Numbered from the stretch's first letter, positions 3,905 through 33,287 are shown. The stretch: DNA of 64,000 bases from Bacteroidales bacterium (GCA_017548985.1 JAFYYW010000009.1:5290-69289); one strand, 5' to 3'. Notes: generated by a model not told the origin, from the letters alone. A program made the numbers and translations.

Positions 3905-5323
3905 CTACTGGATGTTGTAGATCTTGTCAAGGACTTTGCCGTGGCGATCCATGACGATACCGACGACCTTGTCGCCGAATGGCAGAGGATCAGGCACACC
4001 GATCACACTTGTAGCCTTCGCGGCGAGATCGTGGATGTCCACAACCTTCAGCCCTGCCTCCTTGAGACGCTCAGCGATCTCGGGACGACGGGGGTTGACA
4101 GCTATTCCATATTCGGTGACAACCACATCGACCCCGGCGCCAGGAGTGATCAGAGTCGTCACTTTCGGGACGACGCAAGGGATACGTCCTCTCAGAAGAG
4201 GGCAAACGATGATTGACAAAGCGCTATCCTCGGCGGTGTCGGGATGGCCTCCCACAGCTCCGCGTATGATTCCGTCAGATCCGACGAGAACGTTCACATT
4301 GAAATCAACGTCAACTTCGAGGGCGGAGAGGATCACAATGTCAAGGGCGTGGACCGCTGAACCGGGATTATCGGCGCTGGCATATTCGACTGCGCTGACC
4401 TCCTGGTGGGTCTGGTCAGAGGCGATCGACTCAGCCGCGACCTTGTCAAACGACTGGACGTCAATCAGTTTGCCGATCAGGCCTTCCTCATGGAGCTTGA
4501 CCATGTGGGCAGTGATGCCACCGAGGGCGAAAGAAGCTTTGATTCCCTTCTCAAGCATGCTCTCCTTTATGTACTTCACGACAGCCAGCGAAGCTCCGCC
4601 GGTACCGGTCTGGATGGAGAAACCATCCTTGAAGTAACCGCTGTTGATCACGACCTGGGCGGCCTGCTGGGCAAGCAAAATGTCACGGGGATTCTTCGAG
4701 TCACGGATCGCTCCCGAAGATATCTTCGAGCTGTCACCCACGGAATCCACGATCACGACGGATTCGACATCGCAGGAAGAGATTGACTTGGGGTAATTAG
4801 GATAGGCCACGAGGTCGTCAGTCAGGACAACCACATGGTCGGCGTACTTTGCGTCCGGAAGCGCGTAACCAAGAGAGCCACAAATGGATTTGGCGTTCTC
4901 GCTGCGGGGGCAACCGGAAGCGTTACCCAACTCGTCGCAAGAGGAAGCTCCCAGGAAAGCGACATCAATGTGAAGCTCACCGTTGGCGATAGCGCTGCCC
5001 CTGCCACCATGGGAACGGAACACGACAGGCTCAGTCATAAGGCCATGGGATATCTCATTAGCCAGTTCACCGCGGAGACCCGAGGTGGAGATGCCGGTGA
5101 TGACGCCAGCCTTGATGTGCTCAATAAGCGGGGCGTGGACATCCGAGAGACTCGAGGCCGCGAGTTTGAGATCCTTGAAACCCATCTCAGCCAACTTGGC
5201 GACAACCAGGTTGACGACCTTGTCTCCACCGCGGAAATGATGGTGGAAAGATATGGTCATGCCATCCTTGAGGCCAGAGCGGCGGATGGCTTCCTCCAAA
5301 GAGACTACTTTAGTGTTTCTCAT
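3905..5323 (-). CDS. citF: Citrate lyase alpha subunit (citrate CoA-transferase)
   Basis: SGLKDGMTISFHHHFRGGD, FRSHGGR, QTGTGGAS and GGHPDTA motifs. Confidence 0.95.
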   Translation of the reverse strand: MRNTKVVSLEEAIRRSGLKDGMTISFHHHFRGGDKVVNLVVAKLAEMGFKDLKLAASSLSDVHAPLIEHIKAGVITGISTSGLRGELANEISHGLMTEPVVFRSHGGRGSAIANGELHIDVAFLGASSCDELGNASGCPRSENAKSICGSLGYALPDAKYADHVVVLTDDLVAYPNYPKSISSCDVESVVIVDSVGDSSKISSGAIRDSKNPRDILLAQQAAQVVINSGYFKDGFSIQTGTGGASLAVVKYIKESMLEKGIKASFALGGITAHMVKLHEEGLIGKLIDVQSFDKVAAESIASDQTHQEVSAVEYASADNPGSAVHALDIVILSALEVDVDFNVNVLVGSDGIIRGAVGGHPDTAEDSALSIIVCPLLRGRIPCVVPKVTTLITPGAGVDVVVTEYGIAVNPRRPEIAERLKEAGLKVVDIHDLAAKATSVIGVPDPLPFGDKVVGIVMDRHGKVLDKIYNIQ

Positions 5324-18914: not shown

Positions 18915-20753
18915 CTATTCGGGATTAAGAGTTCCGTAGAAATGGCGGAATACCATTTCGCCTGTCTCCTTCGGTAACGGGCGTACGAGAGAACGCGTCA
19001 TGCCAACGGGAAAGTCGCTCTTATTCAAGACTATCATCCCGTCAAGACAGTTATTGAATGAAGGATCCACATTGAAACAGGAAACTTTGGCTCCACAACT
19101 GAAGTACTTCCTGAAAAGCACCGGAAGCCTGTACTTTCCGTCAGAGATGGCCGCGAGAAGCCTGTCGAAAGCATCAATGTCACCCTTCGGGATCTTGGAG
19201 AGAAGGCCATCCGGATTGACCCGCAGGAAATCCGGATGGAATGGATTCGGGGCCGTGGCGAAACTATCGGCATTTTCCATAAGGAAGTCCCTTTCCAAGA
19301 AATAGATGGCGAGGCTCTTATAAAAGTCCGGAAGAGCGTTACTGATACTCACTGTACCGATGCTGTAATTTGCCTGGGGATCTGTCGCCATAGCGACCGC
19401 GAGACCGGAAAGCATCAATTTCAAGGGAAGGACCTCCCGCTGGTACTTAAGGGAGAGGAACGACCTGCCAAGCTCCATGCTGTGAGGAAGGATTCTGTCC
19501 GAATCAGGGCCGAATCTCAGAAGGCTGGCCGTGTACAAACCGTCCTTGCCGAGAGCGGGAATAATCCTTGAGCCAAAGCCGACCCGATAGGCTCCCGCTA
19601 TCTCCCCATTAGGTATATTCCATAAAATCAGATGCTTATAATGGCCATCGTAGGAATCCGTGTCATAAGGATTGCCTGTGCCTTCCCCTATCGCGCGGAA
19701 TGTCTCCTCGCGCAACCGGTAAAGCTCCTTCATGGCATCCGGGGCGTCCGAGGCGTCGATAAGGTATCCCTTATAGTCCCCCGCCTGGAAAAGACACTTG
19801 TCCTCAAGCCCGGACATCTGGGATCGGACCAGATCCTGATCCACAGGCTCAATCAAAGGGGTCATCTTGATTCCCTCAGACTCTTTTTGCTCCGGAACAC
19901 ATTGGGCCTCAAGGGCATAAGTCCTATTGCGGAGATAATTCCCGAGGGTCTGGATGTCCATGCCGGCTATCTCCGAGGCGGAAATCGCCTTGCCGATCCT
20001 GACTTTAACAAGGGTGCCGTTCTTGCAGGTCAGCTCCCTGACTAATCTTAAGGTTCTTAACCTGGGATGGATCATCCCGAGGATGTGGAATATTCTCGAG
20101 TTGGTCCCGTCAAAATAGATCGGGATGACGGGAAGCCCTGAGTTCTTGATCAGTTTTGAGATATTCTCCGGCCAAGGCTTGTCTTCAATCACCCGCTTCC
20201 CGCACGGTCCCTGAGCTTGTCGAAGGGCTGTACGCCGCCCCTTCTTCTGGTAGGTCGACACCTCTCCTGTGGGGAAAAGACCGAGGGAACCACCGGAGGC
20301 GATGTGACCAAGGGCTGTACGGATCCCTGTGATGCTTTTCGCTCCTCCTTTCGAGAAATTGTCCACAGGGATGAACCACTTGGTGAGATTACTGACTTTG
20401 GCGAGAAGGAAGGTGGTGAGGATCTTGAAGTCCTCCCTTCTGGAATTAATTATCGCATTGAGTATCAAACCGTCAGCACCGCCGAAAGGATGGTTTGAGA
20501 CAGTCAGGAAACCACCTTCGGAAGGGATATTGCCCAATTGCTCTTCCGGGACCTCATACGAGATTCCGAACCTTCTCAGGACTTCCTCCGAGAAATCCGG
20601 CCCCTCAAGATCCGCGACATATGGGTACACTTTATTAAGCTTCCCGATGCCCAGGATCCTATACAAAGCCCCCGCAACGCACTTTCCCACAAGCCCTTTC
20701 AGCCCTAATGCCTGCCGCAGGCCATCCTTGCTAATCAGTACTTTCTCGTTCAT
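18915..20753 (-). CDS. Two-domain acyltransferase (PlsC-like plus GNAT N-acyltransferase), OlsF-like amino-lipid synthase candidate
   Basis: SNHPFGGADG (HX4D) and LFPTGEVS in the N-half; LYRLREETFRAIGEG and ELGRSF in the C-half; ATG at 20753. Confidence 0.8.
   Translation of the reverse strand: MNEKVLISKDGLRQALGLKGLVGKCVAGALYRILGIGKLNKVYPYVADLEGPDFSEEVLRRFGISYEVPEEQLGNIPSEGGFLTVSNHPFGGADGLILNAIINSRREDFKILTTFLLAKVSNLTKWFIPVDNFSKGGAKSITGIRTALGHIASGGSLGLFPTGEVSTYQKKGRRTALRQAQGPCGKRVIEDKPWPENISKLIKNSGLPVIPIYFDGTNSRIFHILGMIHPRLRTLRLVRELTCKNGTLVKVRIGKAISASEIAGMDIQTLGNYLRNRTYALEAQCVPEQKESEGIKMTPLIEPVDQDLVRSQMSGLEDKCLFQAGDYKGYLIDASDAPDAMKELYRLREETFRAIGEGTGNPYDTDSYDGHYKHLILWNIPNGEIAGAYRVGFGSRIIPALGKDGLYTASLLRFGPDSDRILPHSMELGRSFLSLKYQREVLPLKLMLSGLAVAMATDPQANYSIGTVSISNALPDFYKSLAIYFLERDFLMENADSFATAPNPFHPDFLRVNPDGLLSKIPKGDIDAFDRLLAAISDGKYRLPVLFRKYFSCGAKVSCFNVDPSFNNCLDGMIVLNKSDFPVGMTRSLVRPLPKETGEMVFRHFYGTLNPE
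20206..20227. repeat. REP-like palindrome GGTCCCTGAGCTTGTCGAAGGG in frame in the acyltransferase (reads ALRQAQGP)
   Basis: 18/20 identical to the reverse complement of the repeat at 28062-28081; self-complementary CCCT...AGGG ends. Confidence 0.65.
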
Positions 20754-20811
20754 TGACCTCAAATAAACCGTTAAATATACTGATTTTTTCTTTACGGCGG
20801 TTATCCGGCCG

Positions 20812-20844
20812 GGTAAGGTCGGTTTCCCAGGCCGGAACCTTGCC
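20812..20844. repeat. 9-N15-9 inverted repeat, copy 1 (GGTAAGGTC-N15-AACCTTGCC)
   Basis: Near-identical arms (one mismatch each) and the same 15-nt spacer as the copies at 21575 and 21650. Confidence 0.75.
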
Positions 20845-20895
20845 GGAAAAGAAGTAAAAACATAGGACGGATCTTTATATTGATATATTTTTTTA

Positions 20896-20903
20896 TATCT
20901 TTG
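20896..20903 (+). promoter_or_regulatory. -7 box TATCTTTG for hicAB
   Basis: TAnnTTTG 18 nt before the hicA ATG. Confidence 0.7.
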
Positions 20904-20921
20904 TATGTCTAAACTATAATT

Positions 20922-21116
20922 ATGAAAACAATCAAAGTACGTAGAGTAATCGAACTCTTAGAACGAGATGGATGGAGACTTGTCAGAACTAAAGGTGATC
21001 ACCGTCAATTCAAATGCAGGGATAAACCCGGAACAGTTACTGTCAGTGGAAAGCCAAATGATGATTTAGACCCTTTCCTGTTGCATAGCATTTGGAAGCA
21101 GGCGGGATGGAAATAG
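20922..21116 (+). CDS. hicA: HicA-family toxin
   Basis: 64 aa; LERDGW...KGDHRQFK...TVTVSGK...SIWKQAG. Confidence 0.92.
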   Translation: MKTIKVRRVIELLERDGWRLVRTKGDHRQFKCRDKPGTVTVSGKPNDDLDPFLLHSIWKQAGWK

Positions 21117-21544
21117 TTAAAACAAGAAAAAAGAATGATATGAATAAACTATATATCAATATCGATTGGGTACCTAATAACTTTAGTGCAGTGCCGGCTG
21201 ATGAAGGCCTCGCTTGTGTTGCCACAGGAAACACTCTGGAAGAAGTAAAGGAGAATATTATAAGTGCCTTGAAGTTTCATGTGGAAGGCCTTGTCGAGAA
21301 TGGCGACCACGTTCCTGATACACTAAACGGAGAGTGGGTGCCTGAGTTCATCCTTACCACCCGGGCACAACTGAAATACTGCGACCTTTACATTACAAGG
21401 AAGGCATTGGCAAAGGAAACTGGAGTCAACGAACAGCAGCTCAGCCACTACGCCAACGGCCAACGCCATCCCCGTCCCGCCATGCAGCACAGGATTTCCG
21501 ACGGCATCCGCTCCATCCGCGACCGCCTGAACGGAATCTTATAG
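21107..21544 (+). CDS. hicB: HicB-family antitoxin with C-terminal HTH
   Basis: CVATGNTLEEVKENI..AL.FH, then GVNEQQLSHYANG. Start at 21107 or 21140. Confidence 0.88.
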   Translation: MEIVKTRKKNDMNKLYINIDWVPNNFSAVPADEGLACVATGNTLEEVKENIISALKFHVEGLVENGDHVPDTLNGEWVPEFILTTRAQLKYCDLYITRKALAKETGVNEQQLSHYANGQRHPRPAMQHRISDGIRSIRDRLNGIL

Positions 21545-21571
21545 GGTTAGGTCCCACTTACGGAACTGCTA

Positions 21572-21610
21572 ATGGGCAAGGTCGAACTTCATGGTTCTGA
21601 CCTTGCCCAT
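21572..21610. repeat. 9-N15-9 inverted repeat, copy 2 (extends to 12 bp: ATGGGCAAGGTC/GACCTTGCCCAT)
   Basis: Perfect arms at 21572-21583 and 21599-21610. Confidence 0.85.
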
Positions 21611-21649
21611 CAATATTGCACCGCAGGCCCCTCCAGGACATTTTTAACC

Positions 21650-21682
21650 GGCAAGGTCCCCTCAACGGAATTCGACCTTGCC
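21650..21682. repeat. 9-N15-9 inverted repeat, copy 3 (GGCAAGGTC-N15-GACCTTGCC)
   Basis: Perfect arms at 21650-21658 and 21674-21682. Confidence 0.85.
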
Positions 21683-21714
21683 AAGTATGCGAATCTATTT
21701 GATAGTAATAAAGC

Positions 21715-22026
21715 TCAATCTTCTCTTTCTAAACAATACTGTCTACAAATAGTCGGGACACTAGGAGCAAAGCGATAATTCGGAGCATGGATATATTCCG
21801 TTGTTACTTCTCGTCTTGCAGGCTCGATACTGTCAATGATTCGACAAATCCTATCCCAATAGTCTTGGGAGAAATCTATTTCAGCACCCAATCTTCCTTG
21901 AATGTGAATCTGACCATTGTTAATTGAAACAAGAATGAAACTTCTTCTACCCAATGTAGGAATTTGATAAGGAAGTTGTTTAGCTGACAGCCAGTTAAGG
22001 ACCGAATCGTAATCAATAGAATTCAT
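21715..22026 (-). CDS. Hypothetical protein, 103 aa, AT-rich
   Basis: ATG at 22026 follows the stop of the upstream fimbrillin gene (22040); no motif recognised. Confidence 0.6.
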   Translation of the reverse strand: MNSIDYDSVLNWLSAKQLPYQIPTLGRRSFILVSINNGQIHIQGRLGAEIDFSQDYWDRICRIIDSIEPARREVTTEYIHAPNYRFAPSVPTICRQYCLERED

Positions 22027-22039
22027 ATTAATGTTTCTT

Positions 22040-22906
22040 TTAATTCCAGTCAGCGATCTCGCCGCCGATCTCGATTCGGATTGATTCGGTGGAGGTGTTG
22101 AGGGTGACATTGAAGGTGTGGTTCATTCCGGGCTTGAAGTTGAATGAACCCTCGACTAGATACGACACACCGTTCGCGACCATCTCAAAGAGAGGGGTAC
22201 GCGAGGACAGTCTCTGAGGGACAACCACGGCCTCGTAGGTTTCGTCATCCACCTTATGGCAAGTTATAGTCCTTGCAGTTCCGTACGGATCCTTTGTAAC
22301 AGAGCCGGTCGTCAAATCTACTGTAGCGTCCGGGACAGTGCTATGTACATAGAACACGGCGGAAGAAGGAAGGTCTCCGACATAGTCAGCACCCTTGACC
22401 AATTTCAAGGTGATCTTGGACAACTTGTGGCTGAACTGTAGCGGGATAGCGTCCGTCGTGTACGCCACAGAAGCAGCCTTGCCCCACAGAAAATCGCAAG
22501 ATCCATATCCGGCAGACTGATCCTCAAGGATGGAGAACGAATTGGCCGTGATGGATGTAACGTTCTCAAAATAAGGATAGTAGGCGTAGATGTCGCAAAT
22601 ACTTTCTGTTGAAGGCCATTTAACTCCTGAGTCTCCGGTCCATTGTGAGCCGTTGTAGGTTGCCTCAAGGTTATTAACATAGTTGCCGGAGATCTGCAGA
22701 GGAGCAGGAGTCTCTACCACATAAAGGCCGATCTTGTCTCCCGTCTCAAATGCGGTCTCGGTAGCCCTGGTCACCGCCGAAGGATGGACGAAACGGATGT
22801 CCATCTGGCCTGGCTCAACTTCTGTCATCTGCTTCTGGCAGGAAAGCGTGATGAGCGAGACAATCGGAATTAAAAACAATATCTTTTTCATAATCATTCT
22901 CTGCAT
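22040..22906 (-). CDS. Fimbrillin-family (Mfa/BF2867-like) lipoprotein
   Basis: Lipobox TLSC; FETGDKIGLY, YAYYPY, DQS, DFLWG and L.F.H.LS. Confidence 0.82.
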   Translation of the reverse strand: MQRMIMKKILFLIPIVSLITLSCQKQMTEVEPGQMDIRFVHPSAVTRATETAFETGDKIGLYVVETPAPLQISGNYVNNLEATYNGSQWTGDSGVKWPSTESICDIYAYYPYFENVTSITANSFSILEDQSAGYGSCDFLWGKAASVAYTTDAIPLQFSHKLSKITLKLVKGADYVGDLPSSAVFYVHSTVPDATVDLTTGSVTKDPYGTARTITCHKVDDETYEAVVVPQRLSSRTPLFEMVANGVSYLVEGSFNFKPGMNHTFNVTLNTSTESIRIEIGGEIADWN

Positions 22907-22907
22907 A

Positions 22908-25900
22908 TTAAAGGTTAGGATGATCGCCCACGATAATGGGTGCGTGGTGATGATAGTTGGATGAAGAAGAATTCGGGATCCAGGCGGGAGCGGCGTCGAT
23001 GGACGACCGGGTACCGAGCGCCGGGGCGTCCTTCGTGTAGAAGTCCTCCTGGTCGAAAGTTAGGCCAGCGTAGTCCATTATCCGCTCGACAATGGCCTGA
23101 CGGGATATGGCACTGTAATACGGGATATTGTTGTTCATACAACTGTTCGGCTCGCTGCGGAAGATGCCCCGGGTGTGGAAGAAGCCACCCTCATAGATGT
23201 CCACGGTATTGGAATATGTCGGGTGGTACATCAAGTGGCTCCAAGGAACGGCATTACGGTCAGCCGTCTCGGACATATTCTTATACCAACCGTTGGCTTT
23301 GGCAGCCCTGAACTCGTTCAAGTGCGCATTATGGCAATCACAGGCATCAATGAAAGCATTGACATAGATGTACTCATCTCCCAGTTTGCCGAACCCGTGG
23401 CCACCGGCCTCGTGCTGGACAAGACCGCGGAAATCATATGGATAAAGATCAGTGCTCTTCGGACAAAGAGCCAAGGCTGAGCCATCATTCCACATATATG
23501 TCACTCCTCCATAATCGCTACTGTTCAGCACCATAACTACAAGTCCCTTCGTGATGTCCATATTGGAATCAGCTAAGCGGGCATAATTGAATGCTTCCGT
23601 CCCGCTGTTTTGGAGAGAGCCTCCTGTCAATGAGTATTGTGTCCCGAACTTAGCCTCTCTTATCGTATTGACACTTCCTACACTGCTGTCCTCTGACTTG
23701 CCGAACACCACATAAACATCGAAATAGTCTTGATAGCTCTTATATGGCTCAATGTCAAAGAAATAACCGATTGCTTCGCGGGTGTCGGCCAAGTAGCTTC
23801 CGGAAGCTATATCAGCAGCATCGTAGCAATCTCCCAGGAAAACCAGCGGGATTCCGGAACCCATGGAATGGGTTTGCTCGGTCACCACGGATCCGTCGGC
23901 ATAAGAATAATCATACTGCTCTACCGTCAGTGTACTCCTGTAATCTTTTCCATTAAGTAAGAAAACAACCTCACCTGAACGATTTCCTGCACCTGAAGGA
24001 AGAGCATTGACCGTTACAGTCACATCGGTTTTCCCCGTTCCGGAAGAAGGAGAAACAGAAACCCAATCAGGCTTATCCTCTATGCTCCATGATGCTCCAG
24101 ACTCGGCTCGAAGGATGAAGGTCCGGCTTTCTTCCGGATTCAAGGTCTTGTACAGACGGCGGCTGATCGAGAAATCGCGATGTGCCGCAATACGCTGGAA
24201 CTCATTCCAACCAGACGCATAAGTGTAATCGTTAACGCTCGATTCCGGGACTTCAACAGTAAAATTATCTTTTGGAACGCCTCCAAAAGCATTGCTAGAA
24301 ACTACAGGAGGAGTCTCCGCAAGACATGTAATAGACATGACACTGTTACAGTTATCAAACGCCCTCTCCCCAATTGAAGCAATTCCAGAATGGAGATATA
24401 TACCTTGTAACATTGAACAACCTTCAAACACGAGTGGTTCTATCAGCGTTACTTCCGATGGGATGGTTATGGTCCCTGTCAGAGTTTTAATATTTCTAAA
24501 AGCTTGTTCTCCAATTCTCAATATATTGTCTGGAAAATATATACTCGTGAATTGATTACCATTAAAACAACCATCAGAGATATACGTCAAGTTGTCGGGA
24601 AGAACCAGTTCACCTTTAAATGAGCAATTTTTAAAGGCGCTACTCTCGATTTTCTTAAGAGATTTAGGGAGAATCAGCGATGAGAAACCTTTACAATTGA
24701 CAAAACAGAAACTTTTGATTGTTTCAATTCTGTCAGGCAAAGATAATACACCTGTAAATCCGTAGCAATTATTAAAAGCAGTTCCTCCTATTTCCTCCAA
24801 AGAATCAGGGAAGACCAATTTGCCAGTCAAGTTATAGCATCTATAAAAAGCGCTTCCGCCTATTTTTTTGAGATGTAATGGTAGTTCAAGTTGTCCATTT
24901 AGACCTATACAGTTATTAAAAGCACCATCTCCTATTTCTTCAACTAGTTCCGGTAAATCAATAGAAGAAATCTGAGTTCCTCCAAAGGCTTCATTTCCTA
25001 TTATCCTTACAGAATCAGGTAATGATAGTGCACCTGACAAAAGTGTAGCATTAAAAGCCTTATATTCGATTGCCGTAATGGGATTATCATTATTTCCATC
25101 AGGAAAAACAAATGTGTTAAATGTAGTTTTTCCATCAAAAGCGCAACTAGGAATAACCCCTTCCACCACCTTCGTCTCCTGCATATTTACTCCCTGCAGT
25201 ACCGACATATTGTCCCTCATGAAATAGAAGTCGTCGGCATTAACCGTTCCTAAAACCTTGAGGTACTTTATCGCATTCGGGTTCTTTCCGACAGCTGTCA
25301 AGGTCTCGCCGAGGGTGCCGGGGGTCTCGACATTGACGACTACATATTCCTTGGCCACAAACTCGTGGGAGGAGTTGTCATTGGTCCAGGCGGAGATGCT
25401 GGTCTGGACGGTGACTTCGTAGCCTCCGTCGGCCTTCTTGTTGATCGTCACGGCGAAGTTGTGTTGCTTGCCGGGGACATATGTGAAGGCCGAGCCTTCG
25501 CTATAGGTGTAGGCCGTTCCGCCAAGGGTGATGGAGAACAAGGTACTGGCCGAGGACACCGTCTGTGGCACCACAATGGCCCTGAAACCATTCTCGTAAG
25601 CTGCCGGGACAGTGCTACGGGCAGGTACCGCTCCGGTCGCGGTCACCTCTCCAGTGGCCAGGTTGATGGTGGCGTTGCGCTTGACATTGTTGATGAGGAC
25701 GGACTGGCTCATAGACTCGAACTCCCCTGCCGCAAAGCCGGTACCCTCCTCCAAAGTCACGACCACGCAACTCATCCTATGCTGGAACAGAAGCTGGACC
25801 GTGCTGTGGCTCGGCGTTACAGCCTCTCGCTTGGCCCAAAGGAAATCACTGGCTTCGTAGCCGCCCATCGATCCGTGTGCGGAAATTGTACTCTGATCCT

Positions 25901-26315
25901 CCTGCACCTCGAACGGTAATGCCTCGATTGAAGATATGGCGGAAGAATACGGATACATACCGAAAAGATCTACTTTCGTGTTCTTATCCTTGTAGTATAT
26001 GTCATAATCAGGAGTCCAGGTGGACGATCCGTCAAAAGTGAACCGGACGTTGGTCGCCTGGTTATCCTTCAGCATCAGAGTGCCGGGAGTGTCCCCGTCG
26101 TAATTGACTGCCCAGATGCCGACCTGATCCCCCGCGGCAAAGCCGTTGTCGGACGCTCTCGTGACGGCGAGCTGGTTGATGTCGCCTTTCATCGAGATGG
26201 GAACCTTTTCCTCAACAGGAGCGAAAGAATCCTCCTGTACCTGGCAGCCGAAAGCCAAAGCCGTGGCGGCAAGGATGGTTCCAAATAAATATATATTTCT
26301 GATTCTCATATTCAT
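22908..26315 (-). CDS. Multidomain surface lipoprotein: fimbrillin-like N-domain, BspA-type LRRs, BACON, M64-like metallopeptidase
   Basis: Lipobox AFGC; GDQVGIW, DFLWAK; LP..L..IG..AF repeats; WVSVSPSSGTG; HEAGGHGFGKLGDEY. Confidence 0.85.
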   Translation of the reverse strand: MNMRIRNIYLFGTILAATALAFGCQVQEDSFAPVEEKVPISMKGDINQLAVTRASDNGFAAGDQVGIWAVNYDGDTPGTLMLKDNQATNVRFTFDGSSTWTPDYDIYYKDKNTKVDLFGMYPYSSAISSIEALPFEVQEDQSTISAHGSMGGYEASDFLWAKREAVTPSHSTVQLLFQHRMSCVVVTLEEGTGFAAGEFESMSQSVLINNVKRNATINLATGEVTATGAVPARSTVPAAYENGFRAIVVPQTVSSASTLFSITLGGTAYTYSEGSAFTYVPGKQHNFAVTINKKADGGYEVTVQTSISAWTNDNSSHEFVAKEYVVVNVETPGTLGETLTAVGKNPNAIKYLKVLGTVNADDFYFMRDNMSVLQGVNMQETKVVEGVIPSCAFDGKTTFNTFVFPDGNNDNPITAIEYKAFNATLLSGALSLPDSVRIIGNEAFGGTQISSIDLPELVEEIGDGAFNNCIGLNGQLELPLHLKKIGGSAFYRCYNLTGKLVFPDSLEEIGGTAFNNCYGFTGVLSLPDRIETIKSFCFVNCKGFSSLILPKSLKKIESSAFKNCSFKGELVLPDNLTYISDGCFNGNQFTSIYFPDNILRIGEQAFRNIKTLTGTITIPSEVTLIEPLVFEGCSMLQGIYLHSGIASIGERAFDNCNSVMSITCLAETPPVVSSNAFGGVPKDNFTVEVPESSVNDYTYASGWNEFQRIAAHRDFSISRRLYKTLNPEESRTFILRAESGASWSIEDKPDWVSVSPSSGTGKTDVTVTVNALPSGAGNRSGEVVFLLNGKDYRSTLTVEQYDYSYADGSVVTEQTHSMGSGIPLVFLGDCYDAADIASGSYLADTREAIGYFFDIEPYKSYQDYFDVYVVFGKSEDSSVGSVNTIREAKFGTQYSLTGGSLQNSGTEAFNYARLADSNMDITKGLVVMVLNSSDYGGVTYMWNDGSALALCPKSTDLYPYDFRGLVQHEAGGHGFGKLGDEYIYVNAFIDACDCHNAHLNEFRAAKANGWYKNMSETADRNAVPWSHLMYHPTYSNTVDIYEGGFFHTRGIFRSEPNSCMNNNIPYYSAISRQAIVERIMDYAGLTFDQEDFYTKDAPALGTRSSIDAAPAWIPNSSSSNYHHHAPIIVGDHPNL

Positions 26316-26321
26316 AAGTGA

Positions 26322-27551
26322 TTAATTAGCGGTTCCTGAATGATTCTCGGTGCTCCATCCTCCGATTCCGATGATGGTTCCAGCCTTCTTCTGGGTGACG
26401 GTCACTGTGTTGGATATTGACGTGCCTGTCTCTGAGAAGACTATTGTTCCTTCCCTGTTGGCACCGGTATTCTCGGCCACATTGAAGGTGTAAGTGGTCA
26501 CCCGGCCATCTGTCGCGGAACCTACACTTGTGATCCAGTCTACTCCAGAAGCCGCGGTCACCTCAACAGGGGTTGCGGAGTTGATCAGCTGGACAGTGAT
26601 TGTCCCTCCCTCCGTTCCGACTTCTGTCTCAGCTGGATAGACCGAAGTCTTGGCTGAGAACAATTTCCTATAGTTCGGAGGGCAATCCGCTCCGGCAACC
26701 GCTGATAATAAGGCGGTTCCGTCAGGGCACTCAAGTCGCATCCGGATCACTTTCCCGGAGAGGTTGGTCGGAGCGACCATCATCCAGCAACGAAGGTTCC
26801 CGACACTCGCCATCGTGGTCTCTTCGAGATCCAGATGAATGGATTCGGACATTTCAGTGGGCGTGATAACGATCAGGGATGTCTCATCGTCGGCATTCAG
26901 GTTGAAAGTACCCTTAGTCACATACTTTGCCTCATCAACAGAGACTGTCAATGATGAGTAAGTTCCGGGGAGAACCGGCATCCTGTAACGGTGGGGTGAG
27001 CCTATGTTCAGGTAGGTGAAATAGAGCATTCCAGAAGACGGGGCCGAGCCGATGGCTGCGGAGAAACCATAATCTCCCAGATGAGATGTGTTGTCATCCC
27101 CTCTCTGAACCTGTCCGGTATAGTCCAGGGGAACAGCGGCCGGATCGAGGTCATAGTCAGGAATGAATGGTGTGTAACTTGCGTAGCGCGAGCCGCTTAT
27201 GAGGGCGAAGCCACGCCCGTCGAACTCAGCGTCGACTTGGCCATAGTATTGCTCCTGAACGGGGAACTTCATCTGGCTCCCTTCTGAAGAGACGATACCG
27301 ACTGCGTCGCCTTCAGCCCAAAGGAAGGTGAAAGTGTTAGTCCCGGAATCGAATGAATACTCTGTCCTTGTCTCAACATCGTCCCCTTTGAAAGGAGACA
27401 AGCGCATTATCACTTTCGAGATACCGTCCTCGCTATCCAAGACTTCTTCCGGAGCCTTCTGGCAGGAGAATAGGGCAGCGAAAAGGGTAACCGCAGTGAA
27501 GAGATATTGGGGTACTGTCTTCATGGAATAATTAATCATCTTCTTCATCAT
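26322..27551 (-). CDS. Fimbrillin-like lipoprotein with C-terminal BACON domain
   Basis: Lipobox LFSC; WAEGDAVGI; DWIT...FNVAENTGANREGTIVF...VTVTQK. Confidence 0.75.
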   Translation of the reverse strand: MMKKMINYSMKTVPQYLFTAVTLFAALFSCQKAPEEVLDSEDGISKVIMRLSPFKGDDVETRTEYSFDSGTNTFTFLWAEGDAVGIVSSEGSQMKFPVQEQYYGQVDAEFDGRGFALISGSRYASYTPFIPDYDLDPAAVPLDYTGQVQRGDDNTSHLGDYGFSAAIGSAPSSGMLYFTYLNIGSPHRYRMPVLPGTYSSLTVSVDEAKYVTKGTFNLNADDETSLIVITPTEMSESIHLDLEETTMASVGNLRCWMMVAPTNLSGKVIRMRLECPDGTALLSAVAGADCPPNYRKLFSAKTSVYPAETEVGTEGGTITVQLINSATPVEVTAASGVDWITSVGSATDGRVTTYTFNVAENTGANREGTIVFSETGTSISNTVTVTQKKAGTIIGIGGWSTENHSGTAN

Positions 27552-27706
27552 CCTTCATCATCATCAGGGTCTCCGCCGCCTCCCTGGTTTCCACCTCCGG
27601 CGCCAGATGTTCCGCTATCCTGCAACATAACAGATTGATCCTGGACTAACACAATCTCATCAATCCCAGGAACCTCATACTCAATTCTTTCCATCATTGT
27701 TTTCAT
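27548..27706 (-). CDS. Unannotated 52-aa peptide MKTMMERIEYEVPGIDEIVLVQDQSVMLQDSGTSGAGGGNQGGGGDPDDDEG
   Basis: Hand translation, below the 60-aa track cutoff. A-rich upstream region; its TGA overlaps the next ATG (ATGA); Y-x-x-P-x-x-x-x-I-x-L pattern. Confidence 0.75.
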   Translation of the reverse strand: MKTMMERIEYEVPGIDEIVLVQDQSVMLQDSGTSGAGGGNQGGGGDPDDDEG

Positions 27707-27774
27707 TATTGATCAGGTTATTAATTACAGTCATCATTATTATTCCGGCAAGTTACACCTTCTGAAAACTCGGG

Positions 27775-27795
27775 TCAAGTCCACATTGGTTCAAA
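27775..27795. promoter_or_regulatory. Putative operator, copy A (TCAAGTCCACATTGGTTCAAA)
   Basis: 19/21 identical to 30564-30584; lies 69 nt upstream of the peptide ORF. Confidence 0.7.
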
Positions 27796-27834
27796 TGAGG
27801 GCGAGGCGTGAGATGGCGGCAAAACACATATCAA

Positions 27835-27875
27835 AATGACGCCGAGAACATCATTAGCGATGACTCGGCGTCATT
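27835..27875 (-). terminator. Hairpin after the kinase gene
   Basis: AATGACGCCGAG/CTCGGCGTCATT 12-bp stem, 22 nt past the kinase stop, with a short U-run on the minus strand. Confidence 0.55.
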
Positions 27876-27897
27876 CAAAGGGGCAAAATGCTTCCGG

Positions 27898-28974
27898 CTA
27901 TTCAAACAACTCCGTGGCCTGACGGAAGAGTTCGTCAATGAGGTTAGAGTCGGAGGATTTGGCTTTGGGTGAAGGATTCTTTACGGGTTGCTTCTTGGGG
28001 GCGGCGGGATCCTTCGGTTCCGGATTCTTCACTTCGTTCAGAATGACAGTAGTGTCGGGCGCTTCGACAGGCTCAGCGACCGTAGTTTCGACAGGCTCAG
28101 CGACCGTAGTTTTGACAGAATCAACGACTGTAGCCTCGACGGACTCGGGAACCGGTGCGGGACGATTAAACCATCGGTCGAGAATGGGGACCAACGCGAC
28201 GGCGGCGACCAAAAGGATGAAGACGATTCCTGCTAACGCGGGGAGGCCGCTCCGGATGGCTTTTTGCACTTCCGAAACCGAGGCATAACGACCTTCAGGC
28301 CTGACTGACAACAGTTTCCGGACGATAGGTGAATATTTCCTCACCGGGAAAAGAGACATCACCATCCCAAGGGAATATAGGTCGCTCCGGACACTGGCCT
28401 TGCCACCGGAACGCACCTCCGGGGCAGCGAAAACGGCGGTTCCCGCCGGAGTCTTCAAGATCGAAGAGGAATCTGTGTCCGAAAGACCGAAATCAATCAG
28501 TTTGACGTTGTCCCCGTTGAATGTCACAAGAATATTCGAGGGCTTCAAGTCCCTGTGCAGCACCTGCTTGGCATGCATATAAGCCAAAGCGGAACAGATC
28601 TCCTCGACAATCTTGTCATATACGCTCCGCTCATGTCTGCCCTCGGCCAGAAAATCTTCCAAAGTCCGGCCATCTATCCACTCCATCTCGATGCAGGAAC
28701 CCAGGTCGGGATGGGTCTTGAAAGAATAATACTCGCAGATATTACCGTGGCCCAGGGAATAACCGATCTCAAACTCTTTGAGAAGGAGCCTTTCATACAA
28801 TGGATCTCCCCTGCGTTCCTTCTTAAGACACTTGAGAACCCTGAAACGCCCTCCCCTGTCAAACTTCCAGATCTCTGAATATCCTTCAGGAGATGAGCCC
28901 ACAAGTTCCAGGGCAGAGAGACCGGCAGGCGACTCAACCGAAGGCACGTCGAAGAACTCCGAGGAATTATCCAT
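27898..28974 (-). CDS. Hanks-type Ser/Thr protein kinase with one TM helix and a repetitive extracytoplasmic tail
   Basis: VLK, EFE, HRDLKPSNIL, DFGLS, APE and DLYSLG; TM LAGIVFILLVAAVALVPIL; ATG at 28974. Confidence 0.92.
   Translation of the reverse strand: MDNSSEFFDVPSVESPAGLSALELVGSSPEGYSEIWKFDRGGRFRVLKCLKKERRGDPLYERLLLKEFEIGYSLGHGNICEYYSFKTHPDLGSCIEMEWIDGRTLEDFLAEGRHERSVYDKIVEEICSALAYMHAKQVLHRDLKPSNILVTFNGDNVKLIDFGLSDTDSSSILKTPAGTAVFAAPEVRSGGKASVRSDLYSLGMVMSLFPVRKYSPIVRKLLSVRPEGRYASVSEVQKAIRSGLPALAGIVFILLVAAVALVPILDRWFNRPAPVPESVEATVVDSVKTTVAEPVETTVAEPVEAPDTTVILNEVKNPEPKDPAAPKKQPVKNPSPKAKSSDSNLIDELFRQATELFE
28022..28047. repeat. REP-like palindrome (minus strand GTCATTCTGAACGAAGTGAAGAATCC, reads VILNEVKN)
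   Basis: ATTCT...AGAAT stem around an AC-GAA-GT mini-hairpin. Confidence 0.65.
28063..28133. repeat. 24-bp tandem repeat TTCGACAGGCTCAGCGACCGTAGT (two exact copies and one degenerate), reads TTVAEPVE
   Basis: 28063-28086 equals 28087-28110; 28111-28133 is degenerate. Confidence 0.9.
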
Positions 28975-28997
28975 ACCCAAATATCCGCTTTTTTCCC

Positions 28998-29944: not shown

Positions 29945-30529
29945 CTATTCAGACTTAAGCACTTCCAACACATTGAGCCCCTCGGCCTTCGCGGCGACAT
30001 AAGGAGGGGTCGCGGATCCGTCGGAGCGGCGGAGTGAGGCAATGAACAGCGGAGCCCCCAGGATAAATTCCGAAGCCTCGAAACGATCGCCCGGTCTCAG
30101 CTTGGTGTTCTCAGCGGATTCCACCTCGAAAGACGTCCCGCCAAGGAACTTGATCTTTACCAACCGGTTAGGTGCCCAGCCAAGCAGTAGTTCCGCCCCT
30201 CCCTTCAATGAAGCGGCCTCCACGGTCTTGGAAGTGAAAAATGATGAGACCACCGCTCCGGAAGCCTTAAGCGCTTCTCTAAAAGCCTTGAAATCCCTAT
30301 AACCGATGTATCGGCTGAGAGCGTCCATCGTCGCGATTCTCGGAGTAGATGAATATGACACATATCCCCAAAGTCTCTTGATAGTAGAAGCGGAGATCAA
30401 AGCACTTGTCTCCCGTTCTATCACGAAAGAGAGCAGTTCATAATCAGTTGTGGTGGAAAGACGATGGCCGAATTTCACTTCGACTTGACGGAGAAGCTCT
30501 CCCAATTCCGGTATGAAAGGTGTTCCCAT
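29945..30529 (-). CDS. Putative HTH DNA-binding protein with a C-terminal beta-rich domain
   Basis: ISASTIKRLWGY...PRIATMDALSRYIGY.DF resembles an XRE-like HTH seen in Bacteroidetes; ATG at 30529 (TTG at 30553 is the alternative). Confidence 0.65.
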   Translation of the reverse strand: MGTPFIPELGELLRQVEVKFGHRLSTTTDYELLSFVIERETSALISASTIKRLWGYVSYSSTPRIATMDALSRYIGYRDFKAFREALKASGAVVSSFFTSKTVEAASLKGGAELLLGWAPNRLVKIKFLGGTSFEVESAENTKLRPGDRFEASEFILGAPLFIASLRRSDGSATPPYVAAKAEGLNVLEVLKSE

Positions 30530-30549
30530 GACTCCGCGAAAATACCTTG

Positions 30550-30584
30550 CCAAGTTGGTTCAATCAAGTCCATGTTGGTTCAAA
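30550..30584. promoter_or_regulatory. Putative operator, copy B (30564-30584) plus a partial copy (30550-30563)
   Basis: TCAAGTCCATGTTGGTTCAAA and CCAAGTTGGTTCAA; the CCA-N3-TGGTTCAA cores are 20 bp apart. Confidence 0.7.
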
Positions 30585-30588
30585 ATTA
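30581..30588 (-). promoter_or_regulatory. -7 box TAATTTTG for the HTH gene
   Basis: TAnnTTTG whose TTTG overlaps operator copy B. Confidence 0.65.
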
Positions 30589-30596
30589 ACCATGGA

Positions 30597-33287
30597 TCAC
30601 TTGATGACAATCTTTGTCCCGGAGGGGACATGAGCCTCGTCCCGGTTCATTGTGACACCCGGAAGCGACTGATTTGAAGACACATAAACTGTCTGTAAGA
30701 CATTGTTCCCCATCGCGTCATTCATCGGGGAACAATAAAGTCCGACTCTCCGTCCATCCCATATTCCGGTCCCCAGTTCGGGATTACAGGAGACATCCAG
30801 CGTGGTTATAAGGTTGCCTCCGCAGTCAAGGCAAGCAAGCCTGTCAAGTTTGGACAAATCCAATGAAGACAGTTTATTACCACTGCAGTTAATATACTCC
30901 AACTTCGTGTTAGAGCACAAAGGAAGTTCCGTCAATTTATTGTCATCACAGAACAAGTATTTCAATTCCTTGTTCTCTGACAGATCCAAGGCCGCGATAT
31001 CATTGGACCAGCAGCGTAATTCATTAAGCTTGGGATTATGGGAAAGGTCGAGTGATGACAGGCCGGTAATGTCGCAGCAAAGGTATTCAAGCTCCGGGTT
31101 ATTCGAGACATCAAGTCTACCGAGGGAATTGTTGTTCCCAACATTAAGGTACTTCAGCCTCGGATTGCGGTAAAGGTCAAGATTCGTTATACGGTTCCCT
31201 CCTATGCTCAGATATTCCAACAATGGGAGGCGAGGCACCAGATTCTCAATCATTCCGCTATGCGTCGGACAATCATCCAACTCGAGATGACGCAACTTGG
31301 AATTCAGGGTGAGGTCAGAGAGTTTCCCGCTCGTGTAGTTGATCCGGAATTCTTCGAGATTCGGACAACCGGACACATCCACGTCGAACTCCTTGTCATC
31401 ACGAGAGTCTCTCAACTCAAGGTATTCCAGTTTCCTGAAGCCAGAGAAATCCGGAACCTTCCCATAACATCCCCTTGCCTCGAAATACTTAAGCTTTGTG
31501 AGATGGGAGATATCGGGGTAGTCCATATTGCTGAAAGACAGAAAGATACGCTCCAACTCGGAATTGTTTGACAAGTCGGTGGAATGGATAGTCTCGCCAA
31601 GATGGGCGTTGTGGGATAGGGACAACAAGACAAGTTTAGGATTGTTGGATACATCTACCCGACGGAGGGTGCCAAGAGGGCCGCAAGTAAGTCCGTCGTC
31701 GTACCATTTCCCAACGCAAGCAAGATAATCAAGATTGGGCATATATTCGATTCCCTGGAGAGACTCCACACCCCAGTCCTCCGAATCCATCGATATGCTA
31801 GTGATCTTTTCAGCCTCAGAGTAACTGATCGCTCCGTCCCCATCAAGGTCAAAGTTGGCCACCAGATATGCTTTGAATCCTTCGTCCTCTATCGGAATTA
31901 TCCCTTGCTTGAGGATTTGAATGACCGTCTCTTCCGGAACCATATCATTGTCCCTATCCGGAGAAATACCCGGAATATACTGATTCTCAGCAACAAACAA
32001 AGTCGTCAGCAAGTTATTGCCCATCTCATCATTCATAGGAGAACAATGAAGACCACAGTCTTTCTCCTGGGGGTACGATCCTAGGGAGAGATTCCTCGAC
32101 ACATCAAGGCTTGTGATCTTATTACCCCAGCATATTACCATAATAAGACGGGGATTATTGGACAAGATCAGGCTTCGCAAGGCGCAATTCCAACAAGATA
32201 ATTCCTCAAGAAGCGGGTTCCTGGACAAGTCGATATGCTGGATATCATTGTCATTGAATGCCAGACGGAGCAGTTTCGGGTTATGGGTGACATCAAGGCT
32301 TGTCAGTCCCGTATTGGCGCATCCCAGATCGACAAGGTTCGGCATACCGGACACGTCTATACTGCCCAAGGGGTTGTCCCAACAGGCTAACTGCTCAATG
32401 CTGCCAGGGAGCAAACAGGAAGATATGTTATTATTTATACAGTTCAAGAATCTTAACCTTGTGTCTTTCGAAAGATCCAACTCCGTCAACTCGTTGAACC
32501 CGACGTTTATGGATACCAGCTTAGGCGCTCCCGAGAAATCTATGCTTTTAATCAGGTTGTTATCGCAGTAGATTTCCTCCAGCATAGGATTGTCCCCAAG
32601 CTTGAGTTCCCTTATCATGTTACCATCACATTTCAGGGAACGTAGTTTGGTATTCGCGCTAACATCAATGGCTTCCAGCAATCCGGGATGTGATCCATAC
32701 CCATAAGTGCCTTCTGGAGCCCCGGGACAAGACAGGTATGTCAAGTTCTTGAAACACTCTATTCCAGATACGGAAGTGATAAGGTCCGATATGACTTCTA
32801 TGCTGGTTATCTTAAGCCCCTCCTCTTCTGAAAGGAACCCGTCACCGTCGGTGTCGAAGTTCTCCAGGATATAGCGGCGGAAATATGGATCCGGTATATC
32901 GATGCCCGCTGGCTCATCAGCTGGCTCAGGGACCGTGAAACTGCCGCTTTGTGATCTGACTTCAGACTCCCTCGCCCTGGCGAAAGCGTACCACTGATAG
33001 GCCTTTCCAGGAGTGAGCCCGGTCACGACAGATTTGAAGGAAGTTGTTAACAATTCACAAGTTACAGTACGCTTCTCTTCACCGTCAGTCCAGATCACAA
33101 AACCGCATGCCTCAGCCCTGGGAGCAGATAATTCACATCTGAAGGTAGCCGCCGTGCCACTCACCTCAGCCTCGGCCGACACTATCGCCGGAGCCAAATA
33201 CTCCTCACTCTCCTTCTCCGGCGCACAGGAGAAGAAAAGCGACGCGGAAATAAATCCTGGCAATATCCAAAAGAGGTGTTTCAGCAT
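30597..33287 (-). CDS. Leucine-rich-repeat surface lipoprotein with two D-x-D-G-D-G modules
   Basis: MLKHLFWILPGFISASLFFSC lipobox (ATG at 33287); ENFDTDGDG and ANFDLDGDG; many LDLS.N..L..L.C..N repeats. Confidence 0.85.
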   Translation of the reverse strand: MLKHLFWILPGFISASLFFSCAPEKESEEYLAPAIVSAEAEVSGTAATFRCELSAPRAEACGFVIWTDGEEKRTVTCELLTTSFKSVVTGLTPGKAYQWYAFARARESEVRSQSGSFTVPEPADEPAGIDIPDPYFRRYILENFDTDGDGFLSEEEGLKITSIEVISDLITSVSGIECFKNLTYLSCPGAPEGTYGYGSHPGLLEAIDVSANTKLRSLKCDGNMIRELKLGDNPMLEEIYCDNNLIKSIDFSGAPKLVSINVGFNELTELDLSKDTRLRFLNCINNNISSCLLPGSIEQLACWDNPLGSIDVSGMPNLVDLGCANTGLTSLDVTHNPKLLRLAFNDNDIQHIDLSRNPLLEELSCWNCALRSLILSNNPRLIMVICWGNKITSLDVSRNLSLGSYPQEKDCGLHCSPMNDEMGNNLLTTLFVAENQYIPGISPDRDNDMVPEETVIQILKQGIIPIEDEGFKAYLVANFDLDGDGAISYSEAEKITSISMDSEDWGVESLQGIEYMPNLDYLACVGKWYDDGLTCGPLGTLRRVDVSNNPKLVLLSLSHNAHLGETIHSTDLSNNSELERIFLSFSNMDYPDISHLTKLKYFEARGCYGKVPDFSGFRKLEYLELRDSRDDKEFDVDVSGCPNLEEFRINYTSGKLSDLTLNSKLRHLELDDCPTHSGMIENLVPRLPLLEYLSIGGNRITNLDLYRNPRLKYLNVGNNNSLGRLDVSNNPELEYLCCDITGLSSLDLSHNPKLNELRCWSNDIAALDLSENKELKYLFCDDNKLTELPLCSNTKLEYINCSGNKLSSLDLSKLDRLACLDCGGNLITTLDVSCNPELGTGIWDGRRVGLYCSPMNDAMGNNVLQTVYVSSNQSLPGVTMNRDEAHVPSGTKIVIK

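Follow-up and report, generated by a model that had tools for sequence, protein, structure and literature searches.

A hicAB module flanked by inverted repeats

We analysed a 64-kb stretch of DNA from a Bacteroidales bacterium (64,000 nt; GCA_017548985.1, JAFYYW010000009.1:5290-69289; hereafter the window), with a focus on the inverted repeats that lie on both sides of a hicAB toxin-antitoxin module. The host belongs to an uncultured rumen genus of the order, and the genome that holds the window (G000) comprises 2.59 Mb in 42 contigs; other G-numbers denote the genomes compared with it. The toxin gene hicA (20922..21116, + strand) encodes 64 aa and matches the Pfam profile HicA_toxin (E = 5e-19). 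The antitoxin gene hicB (21140..21544, + strand) encodes 134 aa, as it does in the calls of public assemblies, and combines a HicB-like N-terminal part (HicB_lk_antitox at 3.7e-4, under the Pfam cut-off) with a C-terminal helix-turn-helix (HTH) domain (HTH_3 at 9.5e-6).

The initial annotation of this DNA described three sites with 9-nt arms around a 15-nt spacer, one upstream of hicA and two downstream of hicB. A search with the pattern GGYAAGGTC-N15-RACCTTGCC recovered all three in these places (20812-20844, 21575-21607 and 21650-21682), always with a spacer of 15 nt, when 0.03 matches are expected by chance and none of 100 shuffled sequences attained three. The window contains no further copy, even if two mismatches are allowed. 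The accompanying remark that the geometry was not noticed elsewhere holds for the window but not for the genome, which has a fourth copy at C42:30971-31003 beside a toxin-antitoxin-like pair.

We refer to each such unit as a REP (repetitive extragenic palindrome). Copy 1 (20812..20844; GGTAAGGTC-GGTTTCCCAGGCCGG-AACCTTGCC) is a singlet located 77 nt 5' of the hicA ATG (20922); its loop is in the orientation that we call forward, and each of its arms, GGTAAGGTC and AACCTTGCC, has one non-consensus base. The hicB stop codon (21542-21544) is followed by copy 2 (21575..21607) after 31 nt and by copy 3 (21650..21682) after 106 nt. The stem reaches 10-12 bp in the family (GGGCAAGGTC/GACCTTGCCC) and 12 bp in copy 2 (ATGGGCAAGGTC/GACCTTGCCCAT). 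Copies 2 and 3 make up a single unit with a period of 75 nt from start to start and a linker of 42 nt (21608..21649), in which copy 2 is the left, forward half; copy 3, on the right, has the opposite orientation. The segment 21575-21682 is a complete inverted doublet, the equivalent of a REPIN (REP doublet forming hairpins) or a BIME (bacterial interspersed mosaic element).

Folding of these sequences as single-stranded DNA gave -17.1 kcal/mol for copy 2 (z = -8.6) and a z of about -3 for copy 3; copy 1, with its two non-consensus bases, folded no better than shuffled sequences. We ruled out that the doublet forms one long hairpin, because the folding yields two separate ones. A possible additional REP remnant, weak if taken alone, was read from the sequence at 21544..21568: an arm-like GGGTTAGGTC (8/10 match) is followed by CCACTTACGGAACTG, which is identical to the loop of copy 3 at 10 of 15 positions, and the whole overlaps the hicB stop codon.

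A different palindrome, TGATATA-T6-TATATCTTTG, is found directly 5' of hicA (20881..20903, + strand), over what we take to be a Bacteroidetes-type -7 box (TAnnTTTG). The arrangement TGATATAT...TATATCTTTG over the -7 box is common to all 12 other hicAB loci compared, with a looser form in G021 and G269, and it is kept whatever the flanking DNA. This palindrome is likely to be the HicB operator. Since it is conserved with hicAB and the 9-N15-9 repeats are not, the latter are very unlikely to be the operator of HicB, in agreement with the doubts of the initial annotation on this point. In this respect hicAB looks like a self-contained accessory module with its own putative promoter and operator.

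A family of inverted doublets restricted to the genus

We searched for the repeat in other genomes. The relatives are all metagenome-assembled genomes (MAGs), many of them fragmented, so calls of absence are soft. In a first survey of 61 genomes the motif was confined to the genus of the window, with up to 16 copies per genome, and the 24 other families of the order included in this set had none. A second survey covered 401 genomes of the genus and used the reversed pattern as a control. About 40 of these genomes carry at least two copies, with a maximum of 25, and the control pattern was never found more than once. The whole of G000 contains 16 perfect hairpins with the geometry of the repeat.

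The doublet is the recurrent form of the family. The 28 doublets that we analysed have a period of 75 nt in 16 cases and of 73-74 or 62-63 nt in the remaining ones, except for one of 84 nt. In an alignment of 13 doublets the structure is GGGCAAGGTC-N15-GACCTTGCCC, then 42 nt, then the same unit again; the stems are perfect, and no bases are conserved outside GGGCAAGGTC/GACCTTGCCC. The initial annotation had described the spacer as differing in sequence and free to vary. The sequences do differ, but the 28 doublets reveal a weak, orientation-dependent consensus: left loops are T-rich, approximately TGTTTTTAGG.., and match this consensus at an average of 8.9 of 15 positions, whereas right loops match it at 2.3 positions as read and at 6.7 when reverse-complemented. 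Right loops thus match only when reverse-complemented, and each doublet is therefore an inverted pair, which is the definition of a REPIN or BIME (PMC3116915, PMC3333891).

Most copies are placed between ordinary genes. None of the 12 loci in G096 and one of the nine in G032 adjoin hicAB, and the majority of doublets in G096 are at the 3' ends of operons. The signature of the family (10-bp stem, 15-nt loop, 75-nt doublet period) is easily searched, and the repeats mark synteny breaks and assembly breaks in these genomes. Some doublets are bracketed by an extra outer arm together with the first or last 2-4 bases of a loop (GGGCAAGGTCTGCG ... CAGACCTTGCCC), at positions 750-920 and 4520-4650 of L016 (G032:C45) and 625-800 of L028 (G009:C47). 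These look as if a doublet had been inserted into the loop of another REP.

The repeats accompany a Y1 transposase-like gene

A pair of genes, encoding proteins of 117 aa and about 310 aa, has a doublet beside it in G032 and G010, and in G373 and G269 there are doublets on both sides of the larger gene. This gene resembles Y1 transposases (see below). Its public relatives come from rumen and ruminant-gut MAGs, and all 22 public rumen-MAG loci have hairpins of the family within 700 nt of it, often on both sides. The same is true of the Y1-like genes at 10 of 10 further loci from high-copy genomes. The hairpins at these genes have the form (G)GGCAAGGT-N17-ACCTTGCC(C), with near variants such as GGGGAAGGT at a few loci.

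Paralogues of the gene (20-55% identity) have 9-N17-9 hairpins on their flanks that keep the geometry but differ in the stem (GTACAAGGT, GGGCCAGGT, GGCGCAGGT, GCAAAAGGT, GTGGATGGT, GTGCTCGGG and GCTCGTACA), and here too the two flanking copies are inverted relative to each other. The initial annotation had proposed that the sites bind a protein. Because the geometry is conserved while the stem co-varies with the flanking gene, they are very probably protein recognition elements. The Y1-like gene with its flanking doublets is a REPtron arrangement, and a repeat that co-varies with the gene is the pattern of REPs and their associated tyrosine transposases (RAYTs).

The motif S-N-H-x-H is invariant among 14 members of the protein family, as is a tyrosine (Y126) within A-Y-I-P-R-N. 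The Pfam profile Y1_Tnp matches 12 of these 14 proteins (best E = 8e-8). Comparison of a sequence profile with the PDB was marginal only (ISDra2 transposase, E about 0.9), and a fold search was needed to see the relationship. The AlphaFold model of the Y1-like protein has a mean predicted local distance difference test (pLDDT) score of 89 and a predicted template modelling (pTM) score of 0.86. Its best match in the PDB is 4ER8 (E = 7e-4, template modelling score on the target 0.61), the E. coli REP-associated tyrosine transposase TnpA-REP with a bound REP hairpin, followed by the transposases of ISDra2, IS608 and IS200. Public data contain 931 relatives of the family at E <= 1e-10, mostly annotated as 'hypothetical protein'.

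The 117-aa gene is conserved, always directly upstream of the Y1-like gene and co-oriented with it, inside the flanking doublets (L018 4880-5233 in G032, L026 2228-2578 in G010, L150 1059-1412 in G096). Neither Pfam nor NCBIfam has a match for its product.

Loss of the cognate gene in the genome of the window

Ten genomes were tested for the cognate gene. All nine with high copy numbers, including the close relatives G096, G366 and G284, encode it at 51-85% identity; the only one without it is G109, which has 2-3 copies of the repeat and is 71% complete. In G000 the best match to the protein is a 24%-identical paralogue at C22:44977-45786, which has its own, different hairpins. These are of the form G(T/G)(G/T)CC(C/G)GGT-GTCCCGTCTG(C/T)GGCACC-ACCGG... 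(L078 2966-3871).

The place from which the gene is missing can be located. In G032 the neighbours of the Y1-like gene are a lipoprotein gene on one side and a tRNA/rpmF cluster on the other. At the orthologous site of G000 (C15, near 42917; 42905-43040), a lone arm, CGGGCAAGGTCG, is all that remains, and it abuts sequence located about 90 nt downstream of the gene in G032. This fits a deletion with its junction inside the repeat arm. The upstream side of this REPtron remnant is held by a GH32-like gene (575 aa). Since the cognate gene is lost, the four copies of G000 are orphans. Repeats that outlast the loss of tnpA-REP are known in E. coli strains (PMC3333891).

The locus in sister species

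The repeats of the window lie between two conserved anchor genes: on the left a bifunctional, OlsF-like acyltransferase/GNAT gene (18915..20762, - strand), and on the right a kinase-like gene (27898..28980, - strand) with 62% identity to the gene that adjoins a doublet in G032. The content between these anchors differs between species. In G109 the two genes are adjacent and the repeat is absent. In G032 a doublet is followed by about 14 kb with other genes, then by a hicAB that belongs to another subfamily and by a second doublet. In G096 there is a doublet, 7.4 kb and a doublet, with a third doublet 3 kb further, and the two left copies have a rare 16-nt loop in common. In G000 the order is REP, hicAB, doublet and then fimbrial-type genes.

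Copy 1 is orthologous to the left half of the doublet that G032 and G096 have here: its loop is identical to that of the left copy of G032 at 12 of 15 positions, and the flank is syntenic as far as the acyltransferase gene. Right of copy 1, synteny to the sister species is lost. The presence of hicAB therefore varies at this boundary, as does that of much else, given the empty site of G109, the plain doublet of G032 and G096 and the REP-hicAB-doublet of G000. Relatives with the site and without hicAB, which the initial annotation had suggested looking for, do exist in the form of these plain doublets, next to the empty site of G109.

The acyltransferase-kinase interval (20762-27898 in the window) is a variable island with cargo that differs by species (L020/L021 in G032:C98, L074/L166 in G096:C14, L075 in G109:C251), and doublets bound it in G032 and G096. 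Fimbrial-type and M64/LRR genes make up the cargo of G000, a radical-SAM gene and FtsK-gamma-like genes that of G096; the cargo listed for G109:C251 (L075) consists of hicAB, HEPN/MNT and an AAA ATPase.

Toxin-antitoxin modules next to the repeats

Several other genomes have hicAB next to the repeats. G366 encodes the HicB closest to that of the window (76%). Its doublet plus hicAB separates two genes whose counterparts in G096 have 67 nt between them, and an arm remnant, TCGACCTAGCC, is present on the far side of the unit. The hicA of this unit (L082/L115, G366:C44, about 4209-4400) appears disrupted, as tblastn gives two frames with a TAA after 'HRQ', and its hicB is intact. The distance from REP to hicA is 78 nt in G366 against 77 nt in G000. 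We rejected a shared left end of the two units, as the 35 nt adjoining the REP are no more similar than shuffled sequences.

G120 has, relative to G424, an extra unit made of a doublet, about 165 nt, a promoter and hicAB2, which begins precisely at a REP arm and extends to about 10 nt past the hicB stop. The stretch of ~165 nt after the doublet is ~90% identical upstream of two divergent hicAB pairs (L113, C24, 5830-6000 and 6738-6930) and includes a G+C-rich hairpin followed by TTTC. From this shared stretch, the repeated unit of G120 is longer than the doublet. G109 has a full REP, hicAB and then a doublet without its first arm, and G251 has another stem variant upstream of hicA. At the fourth copy of G000, in C42, a DUF4160/DUF2442 pair and one REP occupy a place where G032, syntenic on both flanks, has a plain doublet. 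The pair (30264-30933; L029 4264-4933) encodes a DUF4160 protein of 80 aa and a DUF2442 protein of 141 aa with an HTH-like tail, and the loop of the REP is inverted relative to that of the positionally equivalent copy of G032.

About 24 of 29 homologous hicAB loci are without such a repeat, and their flanks are unrelated beyond a promoter region of about 45-60 nt. We saw no near-identical doublet-plus-hicAB units at different places in one genome. The idea of a mobile toxin-antitoxin cassette, as put forward in the initial annotation, is thus only partly supported: the presence of hicAB does vary at the boundary and insertions of a doublet plus hicAB recur, yet the repeats are not specific to hicAB or to any cargo, and most hicAB homologues are free of them. 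The reverse idea, of a scattered repeat unrelated to cargo, also survives in part. The genome-wide search shows dispersal, mostly between ordinary genes, but the adjacency to hicAB exceeds chance and is left unexplained by this idea.

Comparison with known systems

The element is of a kind already known, REP/BIME/REPIN with RAYT, in a variant that differs from the described ones. The REP/BIMEs of E. coli with TnpA-REP and the REPINs of Pseudomonas (Ton-Hoang 2012, PMC3333891; Bertels & Rainey 2011, PMC3116915), like the present family, consist of short extragenic palindromes, either single or paired in inverted orientation around a linker. Further likenesses are the position of the repeats on the flanks of a Y1 HUH transposase-like gene, their co-variation in sequence with that gene, their persistence after it is lost, and a predicted fold nearest to that of TnpA-REP (4ER8). 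A connection with hicAB exists in E. coli as well, since hicAB replaces the REPtron in 24 strains (PMC3333891). The present family differs in its perfect 10-bp stems and large loop of 15-17 nt, in a ~300-aa protein whose C terminus carries a long helical/HTH-like extension, in the conserved partner gene of 117 aa, in the motif Y-I-P-R-N instead of YIxxNP, and in that several paralogues can share one genome, each with its own hairpins. It also differs in its host, an uncultured rumen Bacteroidales genus; to our knowledge, work on REPIN-RAYT systems has been confined almost entirely to Proteobacteria.

Within Bacteroidetes, 'atypical secondary structures' have been described around the genes of TnpA-Y1 subclass 2.6 (Quentin et al. 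2018, PMC6006769). Compared by description, this subclass shares the NHxH form of the HUH motif with our family, which has ~300 aa and AYIPRNA where subclass 2.6 averages 179 aa and has YIH[QN]NP. The IS200/IS605 elements and their gene-less derivatives (palindrome-associated transposable elements, PATEs) also have a Y1 HUH enzyme, hairpin ends and short forms without the gene. Those elements have no terminal inverted repeats, and their two end hairpins are unlike each other and share one orientation. An IS200/IS605-derived miniature element is ruled out here, as one sequence is present in inverted copies on the two flanks.

The initial annotation had likened the sites to pdif modules and integron cassettes. 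There are some resemblances: as in those systems, imperfectly palindromic sites of ~100 nt stand between accessory genes, toxin-antitoxin pairs among them, and DNA of the window family, like attC, may have to adopt a folded single-stranded form. The analogy breaks down on geometry and sequence, which fit neither dif nor attC. A pdif site is a 28-bp XerC/XerD site with 11-bp arms around a 6-bp spacer, and the 9(10)-15-9(10) geometry rules out a pdif module. The core sites of attC, R''/R', read RYYYAAC / GTTRRRY, and integrons have a nearby intI gene. We read the three window sites and the 13 aligned doublets and found no such cores. There is no open reading frame (ORF) of integrase size in or beside the cassette, in a search that was limited to the locus and did not look for intI genome-wide. 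The majority of the sites have no cargo, unlike attC and pdif, and hicAB has its own promoter. The associated enzyme is HUH Y1 transposase-like and would act on single-stranded DNA hairpins, unlike the tyrosine recombinases of the Xer or integron type.

Origin of the hicAB-repeat arrangement

Taken together, we consider it likely that the three sites are REP/REPIN-type hairpins of a RAYT-like HUH Y1 enzyme that has been lost here, and that the orphan copies of G000 mark an indel-prone junction which hicAB happens to occupy. The 10-bp G+C-rich stem with its 15-nt loop would fold as a hairpin on single-stranded DNA. The enzyme to which the family belongs would be a RAYT-like HUH Y1 transposase (about 300 aa) accompanied by the 117-aa partner gene. 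By analogy with TnpA-REP of E. coli, the folded hairpin is presumably the substrate that this enzyme binds, and single-stranded DNA close to it would be cut and rejoined; doublets would spread in this way, and rearrangements would arise at them. The repeat arms would then mark gains and losses of DNA, probably because hairpins are hot spots for transposase-mediated or illegitimate recombination, and hicAB would sit inside or against a repeat cluster at the edge of a variable island.

Several observations weigh against this interpretation. Both repeat loci of G000, with all four copies, adjoin toxin-antitoxin-type pairs, and about 5 of 30 hicAB loci have a doublet where roughly 1% would be expected, given at most about 25 copies per genome of 2-3 Mb and 16 perfect hairpins in G000. 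A purely passive view of a dispersed repeat leaves this adjacency unexplained. Two other samples of the species have the exact HicA protein and a locus 100% identical to the window, with no variants among them, so that no ongoing activity is visible. The family lacks the GTAG/CGTC tag and the stem mismatch of classical REPs, and its 1-25 copies per genome are far below typical REPIN populations. The closest Y1-like protein (G032) is under the Pfam gathering threshold for Y1_Tnp (19.8 vs 23 bits), and NCBIfam models match neither this protein nor its partner. Finally, fold similarity and genomic linkage are what suggest binding and cleavage by the transposase, and we infer how hicAB arrived at its position.

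Alternatively, hicAB bounded by REPs could itself be a mobile non-autonomous unit, made of doublet, promoter and hicAB, or of hicAB in the position of the transposase gene of a REPtron, moved in trans by the RAYT-like enzyme with the repeats as ends or attachment sites. Three independent indels (G120 vs G424, G366 vs G096, G000 vs its sisters) have edges at or near REP arms, the arrangement of G109 has a full REP before hicAB and a doublet without its first arm after it, the association recurs with three different stem variants, and hicAB takes the place of the REPtron in the E. coli strains cited above (PMC3333891). We nevertheless regard such a unit as unlikely: the repeat-free hicAB loci, with flanks that differ outside the promoter, are in the majority, near-identical units at different places in one genome were not seen, the unit of G120 has a doublet at one end only, the DNA adjoining the REPs of G000 and G366 is not significantly similar, most doublets have no cargo, and the enzyme is missing from G000. 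It is, in the same way, rather improbable that doublet plus hicAB forms gene cassettes that the RAYT-like HUH enzyme captures and moves, or inserts at hairpins, using the repeats as attachment or end sites. If true, these would be an HUH-based, single-strand counterpart of integron cassettes and would provide a mechanism for the replacement of the REPtron by hicAB observed in E. coli.

The repeats could also be kept beside hicAB for a role at the RNA or DNA level, such as insulation or the stabilisation or ending of transcripts, with no part in the arrival of hicAB. The genes on either side of copies 2 and 3 (hicB and a 131-aa ORF on the other strand) converge on them, stable hairpins are predicted, most doublets of G096 are at operon 3' ends, and REPs influence mRNA stability and termination in E. 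coli (PMC3333891). Such a role seems quite improbable to us, because the stems are not followed by a U-tract and a scan for intrinsic terminators was negative, copy 1 is between divergent gene starts, where use as a terminator is not obvious, and an Rfam scan of 20600-21900 with permissive thresholds returned no family, just two sub-threshold chance matches. The symmetric half-sites and fixed spacing, and the C-terminal HTH-like tails of the antitoxins at both repeat loci of G000, might point to operators that HicB, or another antitoxin, binds through its HTH domain, or else to tyrosine-recombinase sites of the pdif or integron type. We give this very little weight. Two of the three sites are 3' of hicB and that of C42 is 3' of its gene pair, dozens of unrelated genes, as well as the Y1-like gene, have the same sites at their flanks, the palindrome conserved across hicAB homologues is a different one, the 9-15-9 geometry fits neither Xer sites (11-6-11) nor attC core sites, and no recombinase gene was seen in or beside the cassette.

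With the repeats as probable traces of a lost RAYT-like enzyme, what looked like a 'cassette site' becomes a defined system of repeats and transposase in a rumen genus of Bacteroidales that is uncultured. Its co-varying paralogues and the documented loss of a gene make it a good system for studying the persistence of repeats. The recurrent adjacency of hicAB and doublets, together with the hicAB/REPtron case of E. coli, suggests a testable link between HUH-type repeats and toxin-antitoxin modules.

Single half-sites in the window and the genome

The 9-mer GGCAAGGTC, a half-site of the repeat, is enriched in the window (44 occurrences with up to one mismatch vs 15 expected) and has 95 exact copies in the genome, when about 20 are expected from length alone. 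We rejected the idea that this excess reflects copies of the repeat, as most are single occurrences inside genes. It is probably caused by codon or peptide bias.

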